From positions 12,509 through 76,508 of the forward strand of contig CAXMRU010000183.1 of the NCBI GenBank assembly GCA_964195715.1: 64,000 bases of DNA. Reading direction: 5' to 3'. The position numbers were made by a program, and so were the translations under genes. The notes beneath the pieces are model-generated. The model made no database searches, was not told the DNA's origin, and saw only the letters and a list, made by a program, of their open reading frames with translations. Every line of letters starts with the position of its first letter. Positions within the stretch are counted from its first letter, which is position 1. The stretch comes from Akkermansiaceae bacterium. Lineage in GTDB: Bacteria; Gemmatimonadota; Gemmatimonadetes; Palauibacterales; Palauibacteraceae. Positions 1 to 9,334 of the stretch are shown piece by piece.

Positions 1-985
1 CGTAGTACAGATCCGCGGCCATCGCTCTCCAGTATCGTGCATCCTCGGCCGAACGGGCCGACCCCGCGAGTGACCCGGCTCCCCACGCTGCGCCAGCCAG
101 ATCTCCAGACTCCCGAGCCCGCGTAACGTAGTCCCTGAGAACCTCGGCTCTGCTCAGCTCCGGAAGATCAGCCATCACGGCCTCCACGAGATCCCGAGCC
201 CACGCCCGCTCGCCGAGCAGCAACGCGAGATGCAACGCTCCTCTGCGCTCAAGAATTGTGATGTCCGCCGTCCCCAGCTCCTCTTTGAGCGCGTCCACAG
301 CATCGTCCCGCCGGGTCGCTGGATCGCCGATACGCCTCTCCACCGCTTCGACTCCCACCTCACCCCATGTCAGCATCGCTCGCCACTCGACAGCCGCTGA
401 CCCGTAGGATCTCAAGCCGGCCTTCAGCTCCGCGAGCTCCTGGATGAACAGTCGATTTGATCCGATCGCGGACCGTCCTCCCTCCAGGACTTGAATCGCG
501 ACCGCGCGCTCTCCAGCTCTAGCCCACAGACCCGACAGCTCTACGTAGGCCGCCTGCTCCATCGGCTCCTCGCGCACCCAGCGTCCCGCGACACTCAACG
601 CGCTGTCCTGCAAACCGGCGCCTGAGAGGGCACGTATCCACACGTGGCGCACGGCGGGAAGACCTGAGTCATCGAGACGCACAGCTTCCTCCGCCCACGG
701 AAGCACCCGCTCCGGCTCGCCCGCCCTCTCAGACATCTGCGCGAGCATGAGGAGGGCTGAAACTGACACGGGCTGATCCTGCAACAGGTTCTCCAGTGCT
801 CTCTGCGCCTCTTCCCCACGACCCGCCCGCTCGAGTCTCTCGGCCTGCTCCAGCACGCGGTTCTCGCGGACCGCGCCAGACCCGGAGTCCTGACCTGAAG
901 CAGAACCGACCTGACACCCCAGTAAGGCCAGACATGCCAGGACCGGCCGGGTGAACCGCCGACCTCGTGCCCTCGCCCCGCTCAC
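1..985 (-). CDS. TPR-repeat putative lipoprotein (partial; C-terminus beyond window start)
   Basis: Manual translation of the minus frame from a GTG at ~983-985 runs open to position 1 with no stop. It is missing from the ORF track because it never terminates inside the window. The N-terminus RRFTRPVLACLALLGCQVGS looks like a lipoprotein signal with lipobox LLGC. The rest is helical, A/L/E/R-rich and TPR-like. The GTG lies 1 nt after the stop of the upstream 1120-aa gene. Confidence 0.45.
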   Translation of the reverse strand, partial: MSGARARGRRFTRPVLACLALLGCQVGSASGQDSGSGAVRENRVLEQAERLERAGRGEEAQRALENLLQDQPVSVSALLMLAQMSERAGEPERVLPWAEEAVRLDDSGLPAVRHVWIRALSGAGLQDSALSVAGRWVREEPMEQAAYVELSGLWARAGERAVAIQVLEGGRSAIGSNRLFIQELAELKAGLRSYGSAAVEWRAMLTWGEVGVEAVERRIGDPATRRDDAVDALKEELGTADITILERRGALHLALLLGERAWARDLVEAVMADLPELSRAEVLRDYVTRARESGDLAGAAWGAGSLAGSARSAEDARYWRAMAADLYY

Positions 986-3900
986 TGAGTCCCGCCTGCC
1001 TGGACTGCGTTAAGGCGGTCGAAGTACTCGTACACGAGACGCCGCTGCGCAGATGTCAGCTCATGCATCCGGCTCTCATCCGGATACGGGAACCGCGGGC
1101 CGGCCTCGACACCGGTGGCATCCTCCGGAACGAGGATGATCCCCGCCCGTGCCGTGGTCGATTCCCTTCTTCTCGGATCCTCATCATTCTGTTCCAGAGA
1201 CCGCCCCGCATCGAGCAGCCGTCGGAACAGCCGTTCCTGGCGTGCCAGGGTCTCCCGGTCCAGCGCTCCGTCCGCCAACCGGCGGGCGATCTGTTCGGCC
1301 TCGGCGGCCAGGTCGCCTGGCCGCCCCCCCAACTCGCCGGCGGCGCGCTCCACGGCCAGTTCCGCCAGGCCCCTGGCAATCTCCTCCTGCCGGCCCGCCA
1401 GCTCGCCGAGGCGATCATCGAGCTCCTGTCCTCCACGACTGAGCAGGAAGAGCTCTCCAGCATCAGCATTGATGCCGGCCTGGCGCTGTCCCATGCGCGC
1501 CAGCCTCTCGAGAGCCTCCTCCATGCCGGTCGCCGAGTTGGCTTCAGCCATCGCCTGCCGACTCGCCACGAGGGAGCCCGCAAGATCGGCCAACGCCTGG
1601 ACGACTGCTTCCCCCTCACGAACCGCCTCCGCCCGGCGCACCGCCCCTCCCGCCAGGCTCTGCCCGAGGGCAACCATCTCCTCACCGGCCTCGGCCACGG
1701 CTGTGCCGGAGCGTCGATCGAGCAGGGCTGTCTTCCTACCTGCCTCCGCGAGAGCCTGGGACAGATTGTCGAGGCCCTCCCTGAGCGCGGCCTGACTGCC
1801 GGAAAGGCCTTCCGGCGGAGTCCCGGCGCGTAGCTGTTCGACGATCCGCTGCTGCTCCTTCGCCAGCTCAAGCGCCTCGGTCGCGGCTAGGTCGACCGCC
1901 TCCAGCGCCTCCTCTCGCCAATCGTTCGACAGCGCCTCCGATGCTGCCGTGAGCTCTTTCTCTGCCCGCTTCAGCTGCTCGGCGGCAGCAGCAGCCCAAG
2001 CTGATCTGCGCCGTGAAACGGCCTCACGTCCAGGATCTCTTTCGAACTCCTGAACGGCGGACCGTATGTCGTTTCCCGCGGATCGCATGTCCGACGCCGC
2101 CCTACGACTCTTCTCGGCTGACTCTCCGGCTTGCTGCGTCTCGAGCCGATCTGAAAGGCTTTCCACTTCGCGAGCCAGGTCGTCCACGACGCTCGCCAGG
2201 TCACGCTCCACGGACGCCCATTCGTCGTCAGACCCCATGCTCCGGGCCGCACGCTCCTGGCGTTCCGCCAGCGCACGGGCCTTCTCTACGGCTCCCCTCA
2301 AGGACTGCTCAAGCGCCACTCGCTCCATCAGCCCCAGGGCCCGGTAGAGCCGCTCCTCCAGCGTAGCAGAATCTCCCGCGAGGTCCGACAGCGCACTTCG
2401 CATCTGCTCACGGTCGAGGCCCCGCATGGCATCCTCCAGCGCTTCTATCCGGTCGCCCAGGTCCGACTCAAGGATCTCCCGATACAGCTCCTCGAGTTGT
2501 TCAAGGCCGGCACGCAGATCCGGGGCGGTGAGCGGCGCGGACGCCACGCCTCTGCGCATGTCGGCCAGCTCTTCTCGCATGCGTTCGAGCGCTGACTCGA
2601 CATCGCGAGCCTCGCTCAATAAATCGCGAGCCTCTTCTGTCCCCGCGAAATCGGCCCGATTCGGGCGGATGTCCCGCCCATCAGGTTCCTCACTTCCGCT
2701 CGCAGCTCTTCGCGACGCGTCTCTTGCGTCATCCGCCAGCTGCCCGGCCATCTCATCCAGGGATCGCGCCGCCTCCGCGAGGGTCTCCAGCCTCCGGGCC
2801 GCCTCCCTACGCATGTCCTCGAGACTGGAGAGTCGGACTCTGAAGGTGTCCGACGCTACCGGACGTGTAGAAGGATTCGCGTCGGTCGCGGTGGCGTAGT
2901 AGACCACCTCGTCACCGGGGAAGAACCCCTGGCCGTCAAGATCGATAGTCGGACGCAGAACGAGCCGCCGAGCGGCATCACCTTCCGCGAGGGCAATGCG
3001 AGACTCCGGGTCTCGCAGACCCATTGCCGACTCGCGCCACCACACGAGATTCACACGCGTGATTCCGTTGTCGTCCCGCGCCTCGATGACCAGTGCCAGG
3101 GACCGGTCGATCCCTAGCATACGATCCTCGCCGGGATAGACGATCGCGATCGACGGAGCCGCGTCCTGAATAACAGACAGGTCTATGGCCGGCGGTAACT
3201 TGACGCCCGGAACCTCTCCCGCGGGCTGCAACCACCAGGCGAGCCGCGCGTCGCCGCTTGCCCTGATCACGCCCCGGGCCACGTCACCTGTCACATCCAG
3301 CACGACCGTATCCATTCCCATCGCCGTGAATCGCTGCAAACCCACTCCTCCAACCGGGTGGTTCATGCGCGCGCGAATATCCATGACGGTACCCACGGTG
3401 ACGGTGAGCGCCCTGATCGGGCCACCGATCGTTTCGGCGGGGCGGCGTAGATACGACGGGTAGGTCAGGCCAACCTGCAGGTCCGTGATCGTGAGAGGAT
3501 CCACCGGAACCACGAGAAACGTGTCCGTCGCTGCTCCTCGATCGTCGTCGGCCCAGTAACGAGTGGGATCGTCCACCGGTCCTATCACGCCGACGGCCAC
3601 TTCCCTCGCGACAGCTAGCTCTTCCCGCACCGCAGGAGCCCCGGAACCAGCCTGGCCGAGAGTAATCCGACGCCTACCCGAAGCCATCACGCGAACCGGA
3701 AAATTCTCGCCCCTGAGTACGTGCCCCCCGGCTGGCTCGAGGCGCAGAGGTGGTGGCGGTGGCGGGAAGGAAACCATCCACGGACGCATCAGGACCGTGG
3801 CTGTATCCGTCCCGGCGGACGGCCCCGCGGCAGAGCCCAAGGTCAGCGCGCCAACCGCGGCGGCCAGACCCGGAAGAACGACGCTTCGTACACGGCGAAG

Positions 3901-4344
3901 AGCCTCGAACGATTCGGGCATGAGCACCCGCGGGCCCTTCCCGCTTAGAGCGTCTGCCACGCGGCGCCTGTGGAGACGCGCCAGGTCCGGAGAATCGAGG
4001 TTTGCCTCAGCACCCAGTTCCAGTGCCCCGACGAGCTCGCCTCGTGCAAGCCCCGTGGCCCTCTCCGCCTGCTCCGCCATTGCGTGCAGACGATGCATGC
4101 TGACGGATCTGCCCGCGATGAAACCTGCCAGACCTGCGGCCGCCATCGACGCCGCGGCGAACAGCATGGGAAGTGGAGAACCGGCCTCCTGGAGCCAGGC
4201 ATAGGGCAACCACGCGGCTACGGCGAGCAGCGCCACCAGGGCGAGGCCTCCGATGGCCCCTCTCCACAGCACGATGTGCCGGCCCGTGGTCCGGACGATG
4301 GCCTCGATCCGAGCAAGCTCGAGGCTTGCCTCTCTCGGCGTCAC
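982..4344 (-). CDS. Large membrane-anchored coiled-coil protein (DUF4175-like, hypothetical)
   Basis: 1120-aa ORF with an N-terminal hydrophobic segment (LALVALLAVAAWLPYAWL...AAASMAAAGLAGFIAG) and a PPPPPP stretch. It has a roughly 600-aa A/E/R/L-rich predicted coiled-coil region and a conserved-looking C-terminus (LTSAQRRLVYEYFDRLN). The GTG start overlaps the rsmI stop (GTGA at 4341-4344). Confidence 0.6.
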   Translation of the reverse strand: MTPREASLELARIEAIVRTTGRHIVLWRGAIGGLALVALLAVAAWLPYAWLQEAGSPLPMLFAAASMAAAGLAGFIAGRSVSMHRLHAMAEQAERATGLARGELVGALELGAEANLDSPDLARLHRRRVADALSGKGPRVLMPESFEALRRVRSVVLPGLAAAVGALTLGSAAGPSAGTDTATVLMRPWMVSFPPPPPPLRLEPAGGHVLRGENFPVRVMASGRRRITLGQAGSGAPAVREELAVAREVAVGVIGPVDDPTRYWADDDRGAATDTFLVVPVDPLTITDLQVGLTYPSYLRRPAETIGGPIRALTVTVGTVMDIRARMNHPVGGVGLQRFTAMGMDTVVLDVTGDVARGVIRASGDARLAWWLQPAGEVPGVKLPPAIDLSVIQDAAPSIAIVYPGEDRMLGIDRSLALVIEARDDNGITRVNLVWWRESAMGLRDPESRIALAEGDAARRLVLRPTIDLDGQGFFPGDEVVYYATATDANPSTRPVASDTFRVRLSSLEDMRREAARRLETLAEAARSLDEMAGQLADDARDASRRAASGSEEPDGRDIRPNRADFAGTEEARDLLSEARDVESALERMREELADMRRGVASAPLTAPDLRAGLEQLEELYREILESDLGDRIEALEDAMRGLDREQMRSALSDLAGDSATLEERLYRALGLMERVALEQSLRGAVEKARALAERQERAARSMGSDDEWASVERDLASVVDDLAREVESLSDRLETQQAGESAEKSRRAASDMRSAGNDIRSAVQEFERDPGREAVSRRRSAWAAAAAEQLKRAEKELTAASEALSNDWREEALEAVDLAATEALELAKEQQRIVEQLRAGTPPEGLSGSQAALREGLDNLSQALAEAGRKTALLDRRSGTAVAEAGEEMVALGQSLAGGAVRRAEAVREGEAVVQALADLAGSLVASRQAMAEANSATGMEEALERLARMGQRQAGINADAGELFLLSRGGQELDDRLGELAGRQEEIARGLAELAVERAAGELGGRPGDLAAEAEQIARRLADGALDRETLARQERLFRRLLDAGRSLEQNDEDPRRRESTTARAGIILVPEDATGVEAGPRFPYPDESRMHELTSAQRRLVYEYFDRLNAVQAGGTQ

Positions 4345-5189
4345 TTCCGTGCCGCCGCCCTGAGAGCCAGCTCGTAGGCCCGGTTTCGCGTCATCCCGAA
4401 CTCTCCCCTCAAACGACGCGCGATCTCTTGCGTCGTTCGTCCCTCTCCCGCCAGCTGCTCCGCAATGATCGCCGCCTGTTCTTCGTCCACGCTCTCCCGA
4501 GCCGGATTGCCGGTCTTACCCTCGAGAACGACCGTCACTTCTCCTCGAACGCTCTCACCCGAGTAGTATTCCACGTGGCCCGCCACCGTTCCGTGGCGAA
4601 CCTCCTCGTGCAGCTTGGTCAACTCGCGGCATACGACACAGCGACGGTCGCTCGATCCGCGCTCGGACCACTCCCGGAGGAGGTCCACCAAACGCCCGGG
4701 AGCCTCGAATAGGACCACGGTGTCCGGTGAGTCCAACACCTGGGACATCCACTCGTCCCTCGCCCGCCCCTTTCGCGGCGCGAAACCGAGAAACAGGAAC
4801 CGGCCGGCCTGCATGCCGGAGGCTGCGAGCGCCGCCGTCACTGCGGAAGGTCCGGGAATGGGCTCAATGCGGAACCCTGCCTCTGCCACTGCCGCGACCA
4901 CCCGCGCCCCGGGGTCCGACACCGTTGGCGTTCCCGCATCGGTTATTAGGGCGCAGTCTTCGCCAGCCGCCAGCCGACCGAGGACCTCCTTCACTCGGCT
5001 CGCTTCGTTGTGCTCGTGCAGGGAACGCAGCGGTGTTCTGAATCCGAAATGGCGAAGCAGAGTCCCGCTGTGCCGAGTGTCCTCCGCATACAGCACCGAC
5101 ACGCCCTCCAGAGTACTCAGGGCGCGTGCGGACAGATCGGACAGATTGCCGATCGGAGTACTGACCAGATAGAGAGTTCCTTGCGTCAT
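4341..5189 (-). CDS. rsmI: 16S rRNA (cytidine1402-2'-O)-methyltransferase RsmI
   Basis: N-terminal TLYLVSTPIGNLSDLS motif and overall tetrapyrrole-methylase-like fold signature typical of RsmI; 282 aa. Confidence 0.85.
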   Translation of the reverse strand: MTQGTLYLVSTPIGNLSDLSARALSTLEGVSVLYAEDTRHSGTLLRHFGFRTPLRSLHEHNEASRVKEVLGRLAAGEDCALITDAGTPTVSDPGARVVAAVAEAGFRIEPIPGPSAVTAALAASGMQAGRFLFLGFAPRKGRARDEWMSQVLDSPDTVVLFEAPGRLVDLLREWSERGSSDRRCVVCRELTKLHEEVRHGTVAGHVEYYSGESVRGEVTVVLEGKTGNPARESVDEEQAAIIAEQLAGEGRTTQEIARRLRGEFGMTRNRAYELALRAAARK

Positions 5190-5199
5190 CCTGAACGAG

Positions 5200-5232
5200 C
5201 GCCCTCCGCCCGTATGACGGGGGAGGGCGCCT
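5200..5232 (-). terminator. GC-rich hairpin between trxA and rsmI (putative terminator/attenuator; no clear U-tract)
   Basis: Perfect 9-bp inverted repeat gcgccctcc...ggagggcgc enclosing a second cccg...cggg stem, directly downstream of the trxA stop. Confidence 0.3.
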
Positions 5233-5261
5233 CTCCTACAGTGGCTGCGAGCGAGTATTGA

Positions 5262-5591
5262 TCAGACGTACTGCTGGATCTTCTGTTCCAGGTGTGACTT
5301 CGGCACCGCTCCAACGACCACGTCCACGAGCTCGCCGTCCTTGAAGTACAGGATGCTGGGGATCGAGCGAATCCCATAGCGCTGAGAAATGACGCGGTTG
5401 GAGTCGACGTCGAGCTTTCCGACCTTAACCTGCCCCACGTACTCGTTCGCCAGCTCGGCGACGACCGGGCCCACGAGACGGCACGGCCCGCACCACTCGG
5501 CCCAGAAGTCCACGATCGCGAGCCCCTCGCTCGACTCGATTTCCTCTCCGAAATTGTCGTCAGTCAGGGTGATGAGTTCTACAGTTGACAC
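5262..5591 (-). CDS. trxA: Thioredoxin
   Basis: WCGPC active site and full-length similarity to TrxA. The real start is probably the GTG at ~5591 (110 aa), preceded by GAGGAAG; the track ORF extends to 5711. Confidence 0.85.
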   Translation of the reverse strand: MSTVELITLTDDNFGEEIESSEGLAIVDFWAEWCGPCRLVGPVVAELANEYVGQVKVGKLDVDSNRVISQRYGIRSIPSILYFKDGELVDVVVGAVPKSHLEQKIQQYV

Positions 5592-5703
5592 GATGCTTCC
5601 TCGTTCCAGGTGGTAAAGCACTTGCTTCGAGTCTAGTTTCCGGTCCCGACGCCCTGTCAGACACGCCCGCAGGGCATCAATAAAACGCCATACGGGAACC
5701 GGA

Positions 5704-6105
5704 ATGGTCAAGATCGATCACGTCGGAATCGCCGTCAATGCCCTGGCTTCCTCCGTTCCGGCCTTCGAGGCCGTGTTGGGTGAAAACCCGGCAGGCCGAG
5801 AAACGGTTCCATCTGAAGACGTGACGGTCGTCTTCTTCGGGCGCGGAATCGGCCGCATCGAACTCCTCGAGCCGCTGAGCGCCGAGTCGCCAATCGCCCG
5901 GTTCATCGAGCGCCGGGGCCCTGGCCTCCATCATATCTGCTTCAGAGTCCCCGACATCGGCGAAGCACTCCGTCGCCTGGAGGAATCCGGGGTTGTTCCG
6001 ATCCCACCCGGGATTCGCGACGGGGCCGAAGGTCGCCGTGTGGCGTTTCTCCACCCGAGAGACTGCGGCGGAGTGCTCGTGGAGCTTGCCGAAGGCTCCG
6101 ACTGA
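5704..6105 (+). CDS. Methylmalonyl-CoA epimerase / VOC (glyoxalase) family protein
   Basis: MVKIDHVGIAV N-terminus and HHICFRV plus LHPRDCGGVLVEL motifs typical of methylmalonyl-CoA epimerase; 133 aa. Confidence 0.7.
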   Translation: MVKIDHVGIAVNALASSVPAFEAVLGENPAGRETVPSEDVTVVFFGRGIGRIELLEPLSAESPIARFIERRGPGLHHICFRVPDIGEALRRLEESGVVPIPPGIRDGAEGRRVAFLHPRDCGGVLVELAEGSD

Positions 6106-6141
6106 GCCTGGCTCGACTTCGGGGCCCGGGCCACGGCAGGC

Positions 6142-6630
6142 CTACGGAACCATCGAAGCCGTGAGCGCATCCAGGTTCAGTATCTCGACGTACCACCGAC
6201 CCGCGCGATCCGGTACTGTGACCATCGGAACGACGACGGAGCCCTTTCTCGTTCCCGTCATGCGGACCTCCCAGCGGATCCTGTTCGGCCCGAGTTGCGC
6301 CAGGTTCGCCTGCTGCAAATCGTAACTCTCGTGCTTCAGGAAGCCTGCCAGGAAGATCATCCGCTGCTCGATGTCCGTGACGCCGAACTGGTCCACGGCG
6401 GGTCCCTTGTCTGTCCCGAATAGGTCTGACATCTGCTGGTAGTTGTCCGCGTTGGCGCCGTCCAGGAATCCGCGCACCGCCATCTCCGATGTCGACGCAC
6501 CGTGGTCGGCTCCTCCCTGCGTCGATGTCCGGGTCGAGCAACCCGATACTGTCGCCGCCACCATCGCCGCCACCATCGCGGCCACCAGAATGGCCATCCC
6601 GTACCGTCTCTCCACTATCTGTGTGCGCAT
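6142..6630 (-). CDS. Hypothetical lipoprotein
   Basis: Probable start MRTQIVERRYGMAILVAAMVAAMVAATVSGC, with signal peptide and lipobox VSGC. Contains a tandem AAMVAAMVAA repeat. The track ORF extends upstream into the clpB 3' end, which is unlikely to be real. Confidence 0.5.
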   Translation of the reverse strand: MRTQIVERRYGMAILVAAMVAAMVAATVSGCSTRTSTQGGADHGASTSEMAVRGFLDGANADNYQQMSDLFGTDKGPAVDQFGVTDIEQRMIFLAGFLKHESYDLQQANLAQLGPNRIRWEVRMTGTRKGSVVVPMVTVPDRAGRWYVEILNLDALTASMVP

Positions 6631-6730
6631 CAACCCGGATCTCCCTCTCCGTTGGACATACACTCGCTGGTCGTAATCTGAACTCCGTGGGGAGGGCGTC
6701 AAGATACCAACCTCCTGTTGAAACGCACGG

Positions 6731-9334
6731 TCAGCTGCGCCCCGCCGAATCCAGGCGCTGGAAGCTGAGCACTTCCCCCTCGCCAGCATCGACCTCGATC
6801 TCGTCTCCATCCTGAAACCGACCGTCCAGAAAGGCCATCGCCAGAGGATCCGCAACCAGGCGCTGAATCGCCCGCTTGATGGGACGCGCGCCGAACGCAG
6901 GATCGTAACCGGCCTCCGCGATCTGCCGTCGAGCAGCCGGGGTGATCCGGAGATTCACATCACGCTCTTGCGTCAGAACAGCCAGACGATCGAGCTGCAT
7001 GCCCACCACACGCTGGAGCTCCTCGCGCCCAAGAGGCTTGAACACCAGAGTCTCGTCGACCCGGTTGAGGAACTCGGGCCGGAACTCCTGCCTCAGAGCC
7101 TCCTTGACTTTCGGCTCGACCTCTGCCCAGTCATCACCGGAGTGCTCGAGGATCCAGGGGCTGCCTATGTTGCTCGTCATGATCAGCACGGCGTTCCGGA
7201 AATTCACGGTACGCCCCTGTCCATCCGTGAGCCGGCCGTCGTCGAGGATCTGCAGCAGGACATTGAACACGTCCCCGTGCGCCTTCTCGATCTCATCGAA
7301 CAGCACCACGCTGTAGGGTCTGCGCCGAACAGCCTCCGTGAGCTGCCCACCCTCTTCGTAACCAACGTAGCCCGGCGGCGCCCCGATCAGTCTCGAAACC
7401 GCGTGCCGCTCCATGTACTCCGACATGTCCAGGCGGATCATGGCGTGCTCGTCGTCGAACAGGAACTCTGCCAGCGCACGGGCGGCCTCCGTCTTCCCTA
7501 CGCCCGTGGGTCCAAGAAAGATGAAGCTTCCGACGGGACGATCCGGGTCCTGCAAGCCCGCCCGACTCCGGCGCACGGCGTTGGCGACCGCCGTAATCGC
7601 CTCGCTCTGGTTGACCACGCGCTCATGCAGATGATCCTCCAGATGTGTGAGGCGATCCTGCTCGGCCTCCAGCATCCGCGAGACGGGTATCCCGGTCCAC
7701 GACGCGACCACTTCCGCGATGTCCTCCGGCCCCACGACCTCCTTGAGAAAGCTGCCCTCCTCCTGCATCGTGGTGAGTTCCGCATCGGCCGTAGCCAGTT
7801 CCCCCTTCAGACGAGGAACATCGCCGTAGGAGATCTCGGCCGCGCGCTGCAGGTCGCCGGCACGCGTGGCTTGCTCGGCCGACACGGAGGCTTCTTCCAG
7901 TTGCTTCTTGATATCCCGTACCTTCTCAATAGCCTCCTTTTCGAGGATCCACCGCGCCTTGACGCCGGCCAACTTCTCACGGATCTCGGCCAGTTCAATC
8001 TCCAGGTCCTGCAGGCGTTCCACACTGCGCGTATCCTGTTCCTCGCGCAGAGCCTCCCGCTCGATCTCGAGCTGCGTGGCCCGCCGCTCCAGTACGTCGA
8101 TTTCCTCGGGCATCGAGTCGATCTCGATGCGCAGTCGAGACGCGGCTTCGTCCATCAGGTCGATCGCCTTGTCCGGGAGGAACCGTTCCCCGATGTAGCG
8201 ATCCGACAGCCTCGCGGCAGCAACCAGAGCGGGATCGTTGATCCGAACTCCGTGGTGCACCTCGTACTTTTCCTTCAGCCCCCGAAGGATTCCAATCGTC
8301 TCGGCAAGGGCCGGCTCCTCCACGAGAACCGGCTGGAACCGGCGCTCCAGGGCCGCGTCCTTCTCGATGTGCTTCCGGTATTCGTCAAGTGTCGTCGCTC
8401 CAATCATTCGCAGCTCACCACGCGCCAGCGGGGGTTTCAGCATATTCCCCGCATCCACGGCTCCCTCCGCGGCCCCTGCGCCCACGATCGTGTGGAGCTC
8501 GTCGAGGAAGAGGATGTACCTCCCTTTCGCCTCAGTGATCTCCTTCAAAACGGATTTCAGACGCTCTTCGAATTCGCCACGGTACTTGGCCCCGGCTAGC
8601 ATGGCGGCGACGTCCAATTCGATCAGCCGCTTGTCTCGCAGACTCTCAGGCACATCCCCCGCAACGATCCGCTGCGCCAACCCTTCGGCGATAGCCGTCT
8701 TTCCAACGCCTGGCTCTCCGATCAGCACGGGATTGTTCTTCTTCCTGCGCGACAGAACCTGCATGACCCTGCGGATCTCCGTGTCGCGGCCGATCACGGG
8801 ATCCAATTCCCCGGCCCGAGCACGATCCGTGAGATCCACGCCGAAGCGTTCGAGCGCCTGGTACTTGCCCTCCGCCTCCTGGTCTGTAACCCGGTGCGGT
8901 CCGCGAATCGTTGACAGCGCTTCGCGCAGTGCTGCCTGCGTCGCCCCTGCCTCTCCCAGGATCTCCCATGTGCTGCTGGCCCGCTTGCCTGCCAGCGCGA
9001 TCAGGAGGTGTTCGGTTGAGACATACAGATCGTCCATCCCACGAGCCTCGGCGTCCGCTTCGTCAAGAACGCGGCTGAGCTCTCGGCTCGCCGCCGGAGC
9101 CGCATCCGTCTGCCGAGGCAAACGCTCGAGGCGATCGGTTACGGCGGTGTAGATACGGGCCGGCTCCACCCCGACTTTGCGGAGGACGGGATCGACGATG
9201 CCATCTTCCTCATCGAGCAGGGCCGAGAGAAGGTGAAGGTCCTCCACGGCAGGGTTTCCGTCTCGCCGTGCCCGCTCGGCCGCTCCCTGCAAGGCACTCC
9301 CCGCTCGTACCGTCAGTCTATCCGCTGGTATCAT
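6731..9334 (-). CDS. clpB: ATP-dependent chaperone ClpB
   Basis: 867 aa with two AAA+ modules: Walker A GEPGVGKT and GPTGVGKT. Clp N-domain and middle coiled-coil region characteristic of ClpB/Hsp104. Confidence 0.95.

Follow-up and report, generated by a model that had tools for sequence, protein, structure and literature searches.

Proteins of the DUF4175/TIGR02302 family carry two to three transmembrane (TM) helices at the N-terminus and, beyond these, a long extracytoplasmic region of biased composition, and they are best known as uncharacterised membrane proteins of Alphaproteobacteria. Evidence from elsewhere that the canonical family acts at the envelope is limited; RSP_0730 (TIGR02302) of R. 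sphaeroides belongs to the direct regulon of CenKR, a two-component system for the cell envelope (PMC9275681, Table 1), and exopolysaccharide overproduction upon deletion of the TIGR02302 gene of Azorhizobium is reported by a title cited in PMC6842974. Literature searches on these model accessions, on DUF4175 and on DUF4159 yielded incidental mentions only. The second system of relevance is the Bat operon, with batA-E of Bacteroides and homologues in Leptospira and Borrelia (PMC3557215, PMC5700661). Here we analysed a 64,000-nucleotide stretch, hereafter the window, from the genome of an Akkermansiaceae bacterium placed in Gemmatimonadota (GenBank assembly GCA_964195715.1, contig CAXMRU010000183.1), at one end of which the methyltransferase gene rsmI, a 1120-residue open reading frame (ORF) termed BIG and a gene for a tetratricopeptide repeat (TPR) protein follow one another. 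We give a probability of roughly 55% to the reading that this string, together with the gene of a secreted 420-residue protein (P420) just beyond the window, encodes a MoxR-free envelope cassette in which the DUF4175-like protein BIG is a periplasmic scaffold with co-expressed partners. The genes and junctions concerned are as follows:

982..4344, minus strand: the DUF4175-like BIG, 1120 residues plus stop, with a GTG start and a TGA stop at 984..982
4341..5189, minus strand: rsmI, 16S rRNA (cytidine1402-2'-O)-methyltransferase, 282 residues, heading the tightly packed gene string
4341..4344, minus strand: GTGA junction of rsmI and BIG, the rsmI TGA (4343..4341) overlapping the BIG GTG (4344..4342), read from the sequence
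982..985, minus strand: GTGA junction of BIG and the TPR gene, the BIG TGA (984..982) overlapping the TPR GTG (985..983), read from the sequence
1..985, minus strand: 5' part of the TPR gene, 328 of 606 codons, its frame open throughout and leaving the window at position 1
L006:8068-9330, minus strand of the window's genome, about 1.8 kb past window position 1: P420, a 420-residue secreted protein

The last coordinates refer to L006, a contig that is 99.88% identical to window positions 1..7235 and reaches 9 kb past position 1. Scanned against Pfam and NCBIfam, BIG itself gave no match to PF13779 (DUF4175), TIGR02302 or BatD (PF13584) at E<=1, and matches to Big_7 and LUC7 (E 0.08) were rejected as chance level. 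With BIG below the curated thresholds, its assignment to the family depends on transitive links and on profile comparison. Nine of 24 BIG homologues match PF13779, whose model has 825 positions and a gathering cutoff of 27.3 bits, and one of them (P0024), which has no NCBIfam match at E<=1, passes that cutoff at 35.6 bits. Orthologues of BIG in syntenic positions in other phyla reached 147.5 (L082), 70.4 (L078) and 60.8 bits (L063), and further syntenic orthologues 39.4 (L084), 34.0 (L070) and 32.1 bits (L064), the best of all six covering profile positions 5-753 of 825. When an alignment of the window family (A1) was compared with one of the DUF4175-positive orthologues (A4) by hhalign, the two matched over 1073 columns with a probability of 100% and an E of 5e-104, and in homologues the Ig-like core of BIG corresponds to DUF4175 profile positions of about 190-397. 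Taken together, the homologue matches, the syntenic orthologues above the cutoff and the profile-profile alignment place BIG, at the level of sequence comparison, in the DUF4175 (PF13779/TIGR02302-type) superfamily, as a divergent member related to it over the full length. The initial annotation, made from the letters of the window, had called BIG DUF4175-like or BatD-like; the first of these names survives through the homologues and the profile comparison although it fails the direct HMM (hidden Markov model) test that the annotation had itself proposed, while the second has to be given up, as neither BIG nor any of the 24 homologues matches PF13584 at E<=1.

The family to which BIG is thereby assigned is large, since a search of 1.84 billion representatives with the A1 profile recovered 18,490 clusters with a threshold of E<=1e-3 and 4,892 with one of E<=1e-30, counted as representative clusters at 50% identity. 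Like the canonical family, BIG has N-terminal TM helices, in three segments, and a long biased region of 545 residues; it differs in being about 300 residues longer than the Pfam model, in its hexaproline linker and in having DUF4159, TPR and P420 genes as cassette neighbours.

That BIG is a real protein had to be weighed in a region of 65-70% GC with many long antisense ORFs, such as 967..1833 on the plus strand (288 residues), where a long ORF might be a chance open frame, or the product of a fusion or an assembly artefact. The homologue set already refutes this explanation, to which we give practically no weight: full-length homologues of 1070-1170 residues occur on many independent metagenomic contigs at identities from 93% down to 20%, the alphafold2 (AF2) model of BIG is confident, and the GC content at codon positions 1, 2 and 3 (0.76/0.52/0.73) is typical of local genes, the pattern being shared with rsmI and ClpB. 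Since this pattern is that of the neighbouring genes, and since 33 close homologues conserve both length and N-terminus, the 1120-residue ORF is a genuine gene. Three shadow ORFs of 200-290 residues lie over BIG in other frames, at 967-1833 (plus), 1056-1871 (minus) and 3563-4204 (plus); these are the usual shadow of high-GC DNA and have no gene support.

rsmI, BIG and the TPR ORF are chained on the minus strand by the two GTGA start/stop overlaps listed above. The overlap of the BIG start with the rsmI stop had been recognised before and is borne out by the sequence; at its other end BIG had been described as stopping 1 nt before the TPR GTG, where there is actually a second GTGA overlap. The TPR frame, earlier seen to run off the window, is intact at 606 residues on L006. 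Beyond BIG, L006 carries the TPR gene, P420 (again joined by a 4-nt overlap), an aminotransferase, a 295-residue ORF, ValRS, a Big_5 protein and SelA.

The same arrangement was met in the gene contexts of the BIG homologues P0017, P0019, P0027, P0032, P0001 and P0029, all of which show the cassette, and in distant homologues the repeated order is ClpB–x–glyoxalase(-)–trx–rsmI–[DUF4159]–BIG–TPR–P420. A survey covered 80 genome loci fetched with P420 as probe, the ORFs of which were scored with HMMs. The order rsmI–DUF4159–BIG–TPR–P420 was found in about 45 Gemmatimonadota loci of these 80, and seven complete loci outside Gemmatimonadota (Eisenbacteria, a metagenome-assembled genome (MAG) of the 'FCB group' and unclassified MAGs) have DUF4159–BIG–TPR–P420 without rsmI, with flanks that vary (M23 peptidase, MazG, trypsin-like protease). 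Two loci truncated at their ends, L070 (a Bacteroidota MAG) and L073, show BIG and P420 only. The window clade, represented by four loci (L001, L002, L006 and L010), has no DUF4159 gene, and rsmI is joined directly to BIG; tblastn found no DUF4159 gene in the 64-kb window either. Judged from these sequences, the clade has cleanly lost the DUF4159 gene, which stands between rsmI and BIG in about 41 other Gemmatimonadota loci, and rsmI has itself become the partner in a new 4-nt overlap. At the successive junctions of rsmI–DUF4159–BIG–TPR–P420 a start at -4 is available in 26/41, 36/46, 27/44 and 41/49 cases, and at the rsmI-to-BIG junctions of the related loci in 3/4, all of these fractions being upper estimates because the start codon nearest to -4 was picked. 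The comparisons thus show that Gemmatimonadota, Eisenbacteria and other FCB lineages share [DUF4159]–DUF4175–TPR–P420 as a conserved cassette, and neither DUF4159, P420 nor the cassette is described in any paper found by our literature search.

This gene content bears directly on the proposal in the initial annotation that BIG, the TPR gene and rsmI resemble the last genes of an aerotolerance-like operon of the Bat type (MoxR–DUF58–vWA–BatD–TPR), the rest of which would lie outside the window. The MoxR, DUF58 and vWA genes expected beyond position 1 are not there: the 9 kb of L006 past that position contain none of them, and hold instead the TPR gene, P420 and the genes from the aminotransferase to SelA. 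Nor was there a tblastn match to MoxR, DUF58 or BatA in the 64-kb window, or a MoxR, DUF58 or vWA gene flanking the cassette in about 12 loci inspected gene by gene, and the BatD domain is missing as described above. Hence, the window locus does not belong to a MoxR/Bat operon, and physical linkage is already refuted. The likeness itself has some substance, as DUF4175-like paralogues do end MoxR/DUF58/BatA operons elsewhere. On plasmid 1 of Gemmatirosa kalamazoonensis (L088; a 1.1-Mb megaplasmid, NZ_CP007129.1 728765-747697) we observed a 958-residue protein ending in DUF4159, MoxR (2r44, E 3e-78), DUF58 (E 5e-41), a BatA_N+VWA protein with a weak GATase1_like match, and a terminal 1268-residue DUF4175-like protein whose N-terminal 500 residues match the window family with an E of 2.5e-56; a MacB-like permease comes next. 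The Planctomyces plasmid pPL62-3 is annotated as DUF58–hypothetical–BatA–VWA, and the protein after these has a match to the Ig region of DUF4175. Domains of the DUF4159 and amidotransferase-like kinds are met in both types of locus. These MoxR-linked proteins are, however, paralogues with good alignment limited to the N-terminal 500 residues, and that the locus is the end of a Bat-type operon is in our view improbable.

What the comparison does bring out is that Gemmatimonadota hold two different DUF4175 contexts, given the MoxR-type operon of Gemmatirosa beside the cassette, and that scaffolds of the DUF4175 type recur together with TPR proteins and domains of the amidotransferase fold. With the Bat/MoxR operons the cassette shares membrane-anchored extracytoplasmic proteins and TPR proteins and, in the Gemmatirosa and Planctomyces versions, DUF4175-like paralogues, DUF4159 and GATase1-like domains; the window locus lacks the MoxR AAA+ ATPase, DUF58, BatA_N/vWA and the BatD domain. 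The cassette hence looks like the extracytoplasmic parts of such operons alone, without MoxR. A third family context was seen for the most distant BIG homologue found (P0033, L089:349-3756; 20% identity, DUF4175 E 5e-5), which precedes an anti-sigma-factor-like HATPase_c_2 protein, YbeY and GidA.

Among the partners of BIG, P420 is far more strongly conserved than BIG itself, with an identity between phyla of 50-65% as compared to about 18-30% for BIG, and it matched nothing in Pfam, in NCBIfam or among PDB sequences. Its label in NCBI records, 'asparagine synthetase B', is not supported by its modelled fold; the predicted fold is of the class-I glutamine-amidotransferase/ThuA-like type, for which 4JQS, 3RHT and 1T0B serve as structures for comparison. 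C227 lies between a strand (222-226) and a helix (228-238), thus in the strand-Cys-helix (nucleophile-elbow) position, and P420 carries a near-invariant GGH-D-P-E-D motif; C227, H376, D377, P378, D380 and H383 are present in 85/85 sequences across phyla and E379 in 83/85. Based on the position of C227 and the conserved H376-D-P-E-D motif, P420 probably has a putative active site of the Cys/His/Glu type and is probably the catalytic component. ThuA-like proteins generally lack a Cys at the nucleophile-elbow position. DUF4159 (PF13709), the usual first gene of the cassette, encodes a secreted protein of about 230 residues (E 1e-61 to 1e-67) that matches a solved, uncharacterised structure, 4I66 (Hoch_4089), with an E of 8e-21. 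P420 has the invariant nucleophile-elbow Cys, whereas the cassette DUF4159 has none at the aligned GGFLHADD position; P420 is also twice as long and without a relation at the sequence level, and the idea that it is a long relative of DUF4159 was rejected on this ground (hhalign probability 1.3%).

The third partner, the TPR protein, begins in the window as a fragment of 328 residues with a signal peptide (LALLGC|Q) and a best TPR HMM score of 29.1 bits (TPR_16) against a cutoff of 32.7. Its full-length counterpart in L006 (606 residues) shows a YbgF/CpoB-like C-terminus (TIGR02795, E 6e-11, 43 bits against a cutoff of 90) and a BamD-like match, both below threshold, while the orthologues in L001, L002, L082, L063 and L078 score above the TPR cutoffs, those of other phyla reaching about 90 bits with TPR_6/TPR_16. 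The LALLGC lipobox is found in the window species and L006, and most orthologues have a plain signal peptide (A-x-A|Q) without the Cys. The product may thus possibly be a lipoprotein in this species, and a conserved lipoprotein status was rejected because most orthologues lack the lipobox Cys; of the earlier designation "TPR-repeat lipoprotein" the first half is upheld by the orthologue scores and the second does not extend beyond this species. Signal peptides are present on all the conserved partners of BIG, namely TPR, P420 and DUF4159.

BIG itself can be divided into five regions, for which the AF2 model (24-sequence alignment; mean predicted local distance difference test (pLDDT) 80.9, predicted template modelling score 0.53) was used together with hydropathy and alignment:

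3820..4344, minus strand: N-terminal membrane region, residues 1-175, three hydrophobic helices and an Arg-rich loop at residues 79-151
3748..3765, minus strand: hexaproline linker, residues 194-199, directly past the third TM helix, from the translation
2830..3744, minus strand: three tandem Ig-like beta-sandwich domains, residues 201-505, the most conserved part of BIG
1189..2823, minus strand: A/E/L/R-rich all-helical region, residues 508-1052, at least 13 helices of 20-65 residues
985..1188, minus strand: C-terminal tail, residues 1053-1120, a low-confidence stretch and then a conserved terminal helix (PYPD...AQRRLV.EYFDRLN)

Hydropathy gave hydrophobic segments at residues 23-52, 57-78 and 152-174, which are helices in the AF2 model too and agree with the membrane anchor seen in the initial annotation, as does the hexaproline with its poly-Pro stretch. 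The Arg-rich loop contains a conserved G-x-L-x-G-A-L-E-L motif in the alignment consensus. The hexaproline is kept in the Gemmatimonadota consensus (FPPPPPPL) and not in that of other phyla. The three Ig-like domains, which the earlier description did not mention, are modelled as strands with pLDDT mostly of 85-94, and Foldseek matched this beta region to tandem Ig/FN3/MG-domain proteins (E about 1e-5). Invariant columns in the region are D394, P397, D424, D425, G477, D478 and D488, and the acidic residues among them (D394, D424, D425, D478 and D488) belong to the third Ig-like domain and are, together with the motif RQERLFRRLLDAGRS (residues 1035-1049) that closes the helical region and the Y1107/F1108 helix of the tail, among the most conserved positions of BIG.

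The helical region of about 545 residues (A 19%, E 14%, L 13%, R 13%) had been taken as some 600 residues of A/E/R-rich coiled coil; the compositional bias holds over the shorter length, but the coiled coil is not supported, AF2 modelling the region as consecutive antiparallel 4-helix bundles and not as a single long coiled coil. Fold searches with the model returned 4-helix-bundle matches as well as Ig-like ones, and a profile search of PDB sequences returned designed antiparallel coiled coils only, on account of the A/E/L/R-rich composition. A search for internal repeats by hhalign of segment against segment within the region gave probabilities of at most 66%. In the tail, pLDDT falls below 50 at residues 1049-1082, which are probably disordered, a helix is modelled at residues 1098-1113, and P1088, R1101, Y1107 and F1108 are invariant.

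The orientation of BIG in the membrane decides on which side its bulk of some 945 residues would lie. Lys plus Arg counts are 5 for the N-terminus, 0 for the loop at residues 50-57 and 12 for the loop at residues 79-151, from which, by the positive-inside rule, we infer a cytoplasmic position for the N-terminus and the Arg-rich loop and an outside one for all that follows residue 175. In this model, the three helices would anchor BIG in the inner membrane, and the remaining residues would form, in the periplasm, a proline linker, three Ig-like domains, a helix-bundle rod of about 545 residues, a flexible tail and a terminal helix. BIG would then be a long, inner-membrane-anchored periplasmic scaffold or spacer that may organise its co-translated secreted partners at the envelope, namely the TPR protein as an adaptor and one or two proteins with an amidotransferase fold, of which P420 would be the probable enzyme of the module, with rsmI as a phylum-specific co-expressed passenger. 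The arrangement recalls TolA and CpoB (YbgF) by analogy only: an inner-membrane anchor followed by a long helical periplasmic domain would be common to both, and the partner TPR protein has the sub-threshold YbgF/CpoB-like C-terminus. On the other hand, no sequence or fold relation of BIG to TolA was found, BIG differs by its three Ig-like domains and by a helical part that is modelled as folding back into bundles, and TolQR-like motor genes are not adjacent.

Were the topology reversed, the C-terminal 945 residues would be cytoplasmic and BIG might be a membrane-tethered coiled-coil factor of the cytoskeleton or of cell division, similar to AdvA of A. baumannii, an essential division protein with an N-terminal DUF4175 annotation (PMC7481262). 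A/E/R-rich helices are typical of cytoplasmic coiled coils, and the designed coiled coils returned from the PDB would fit this as well. We consider it to have a small chance only, in view of the positive-inside rule, which puts the Arg-rich loop with its 12 Lys and Arg inside and the C-terminal part outside, the three Ig-like domains directly after the third TM helix, and the signal peptide on every conserved operon partner. The resemblance to AdvA, moreover, may be confined to the membrane anchor, since the DUF4175 region of AdvA is described as lying, together with two TM helices, upstream of residues 203-238 (PMC7481262). We conclude that BIG is probably a periplasmic envelope scaffold.

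Several observations weigh against this interpretation and should be set beside it. The window protein fails every curated HMM tested in Pfam and NCBIfam, its topology is inferred from hydropathy and the positive-inside rule only, and a 545-residue A/E/R-rich helical rod is unusual for the periplasm. The choice of the start codon nearest to -4 biases the junction statistic, and the DUF4175-like gene P0033 stands alone, outside any cassette. Furthermore, P420 follows a secreted protein of about 600 residues, a putative TPR protein, with no DUF4175 or DUF4159 gene nearby in Calditrichia (L080:8146-11260) and in other fetched loci of uncertain phylum such as L061 (8100-11263). DUF4175 is therefore not an obligatory partner, and TPR–P420 may represent the more ancient core of the cassette. 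In MAGs of Fibrobacteria, Kapabacteria and Cloacimonadota (L068, L072 and L079), P420 was seen with other upstream genes and without a DUF4175/DUF4159 match.

The first gene of the string, rsmI, is securely identified, its product scoring 225.5 bits with the equivalog model TIGR00096 (cutoff 167.9) and an E of 1.6e-32 with TP_methylase. Its tight coupling to BIG, already pointed out in the initial annotation, is real and conserved across Gemmatimonadota, rsmI lying directly upstream of the cassette in all 45 loci of this phylum with enough upstream sequence. Such constancy, a -4 start available at 29 of these 45 junctions, and the re-formation of the overlap directly with rsmI after the loss of DUF4159 in the window clade would all suit a functional coupling, by which the module would be tied to ribosome maturation or growth-rate control. 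This seems unlikely to us, because the seven complete cassettes outside Gemmatimonadota have no rsmI and have different upstream neighbours (L078 has an oppositely oriented M23 peptidase there and L082 a TPR protein), and because the RsmI enzyme is a cytoplasmic rRNA methyltransferase while the cassette products are all membrane or secreted proteins. The attachment of rsmI is rather inferred to be a Gemmatimonadota-specific operon arrangement that gives co-expression, and not a part of the functional module.

Upstream of rsmI the neighbourhood contains the following features:

5199..5230, minus strand: strong GC-rich hairpin past the trx stop, separating trx from rsmI and ending about 9 nt before the rsmI ATG
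5262..5591, minus strand: thioredoxin gene (trx), with the Pfam Thioredoxin match on the identical L006 gene; same position in L001-L004 and L090
5704..6105, plus strand: glyoxalase
within 6142..6855, minus strand: lipoprotein-like ORF of about 160 residues, no Pfam match
6731..9334, minus strand: ClpB

The synteny of the thioredoxin gene, the glyoxalase, the lipoprotein-like ORF and ClpB upstream of rsmI is conserved across Gemmatimonadota. The 80-nt stretch 5186-5265 that includes the hairpin folds at -39.1 kcal/mol (z = -3.8, none of 200 shuffles being as stable). The consensus terminator scan did not call the hairpin, since no U-tract follows it; it may be a terminator, an attenuator or a processing/stability element, and may mark the 5' boundary of the rsmI-cassette transcript. 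Scanning 1..6200 for sigma-70 promoters and intrinsic terminators gave nothing above the shuffled expectation, and no Rfam family or tRNA gene was found in the 64 kb. The rest of the window (9400-64000) is ordinary chromosomal housekeeping, with genes for an M14 carboxypeptidase, a Ser/Thr kinase, a PBP2-type transpeptidase, PNPase, IF-2, NusA, a UvrD-like helicase and ThiI.

The locus is a conserved chromosomal operon and neither a mobile nor an exotic element. The family is already known; new here are a divergent DUF4175 member, an undescribed cassette and the highly conserved P420, the cassette with its P420 component being the most interesting by-product of the analysis, and P420 merits a family model of its own. 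More tentatively, the cassette could be an undescribed, MoxR-independent periplasmic machine of the FCB lineages in which the scaffold positions an active P420 on an envelope substrate, with a growth-coupled link through rsmI. If true, the substrate of P420 might be, for example, peptidoglycan or a lipid-linked amide, and the cassette would be a Bat-like module that has shed its AAA+/vWA part. With its roughly 18,500 clusters at 50% identity, the DUF4175 family is very large and yet functionally uncharacterised, and the Bat/MoxR systems that are sometimes linked to it are likewise unexplained. A whole branch of this family escapes the Pfam model and sits in a compact cassette with a TPR protein and the strongly conserved P420, without MoxR, DUF58 or vWA genes, and this cassette offers a cleaner genetic handle on the role of DUF4175 at the diderm envelope.

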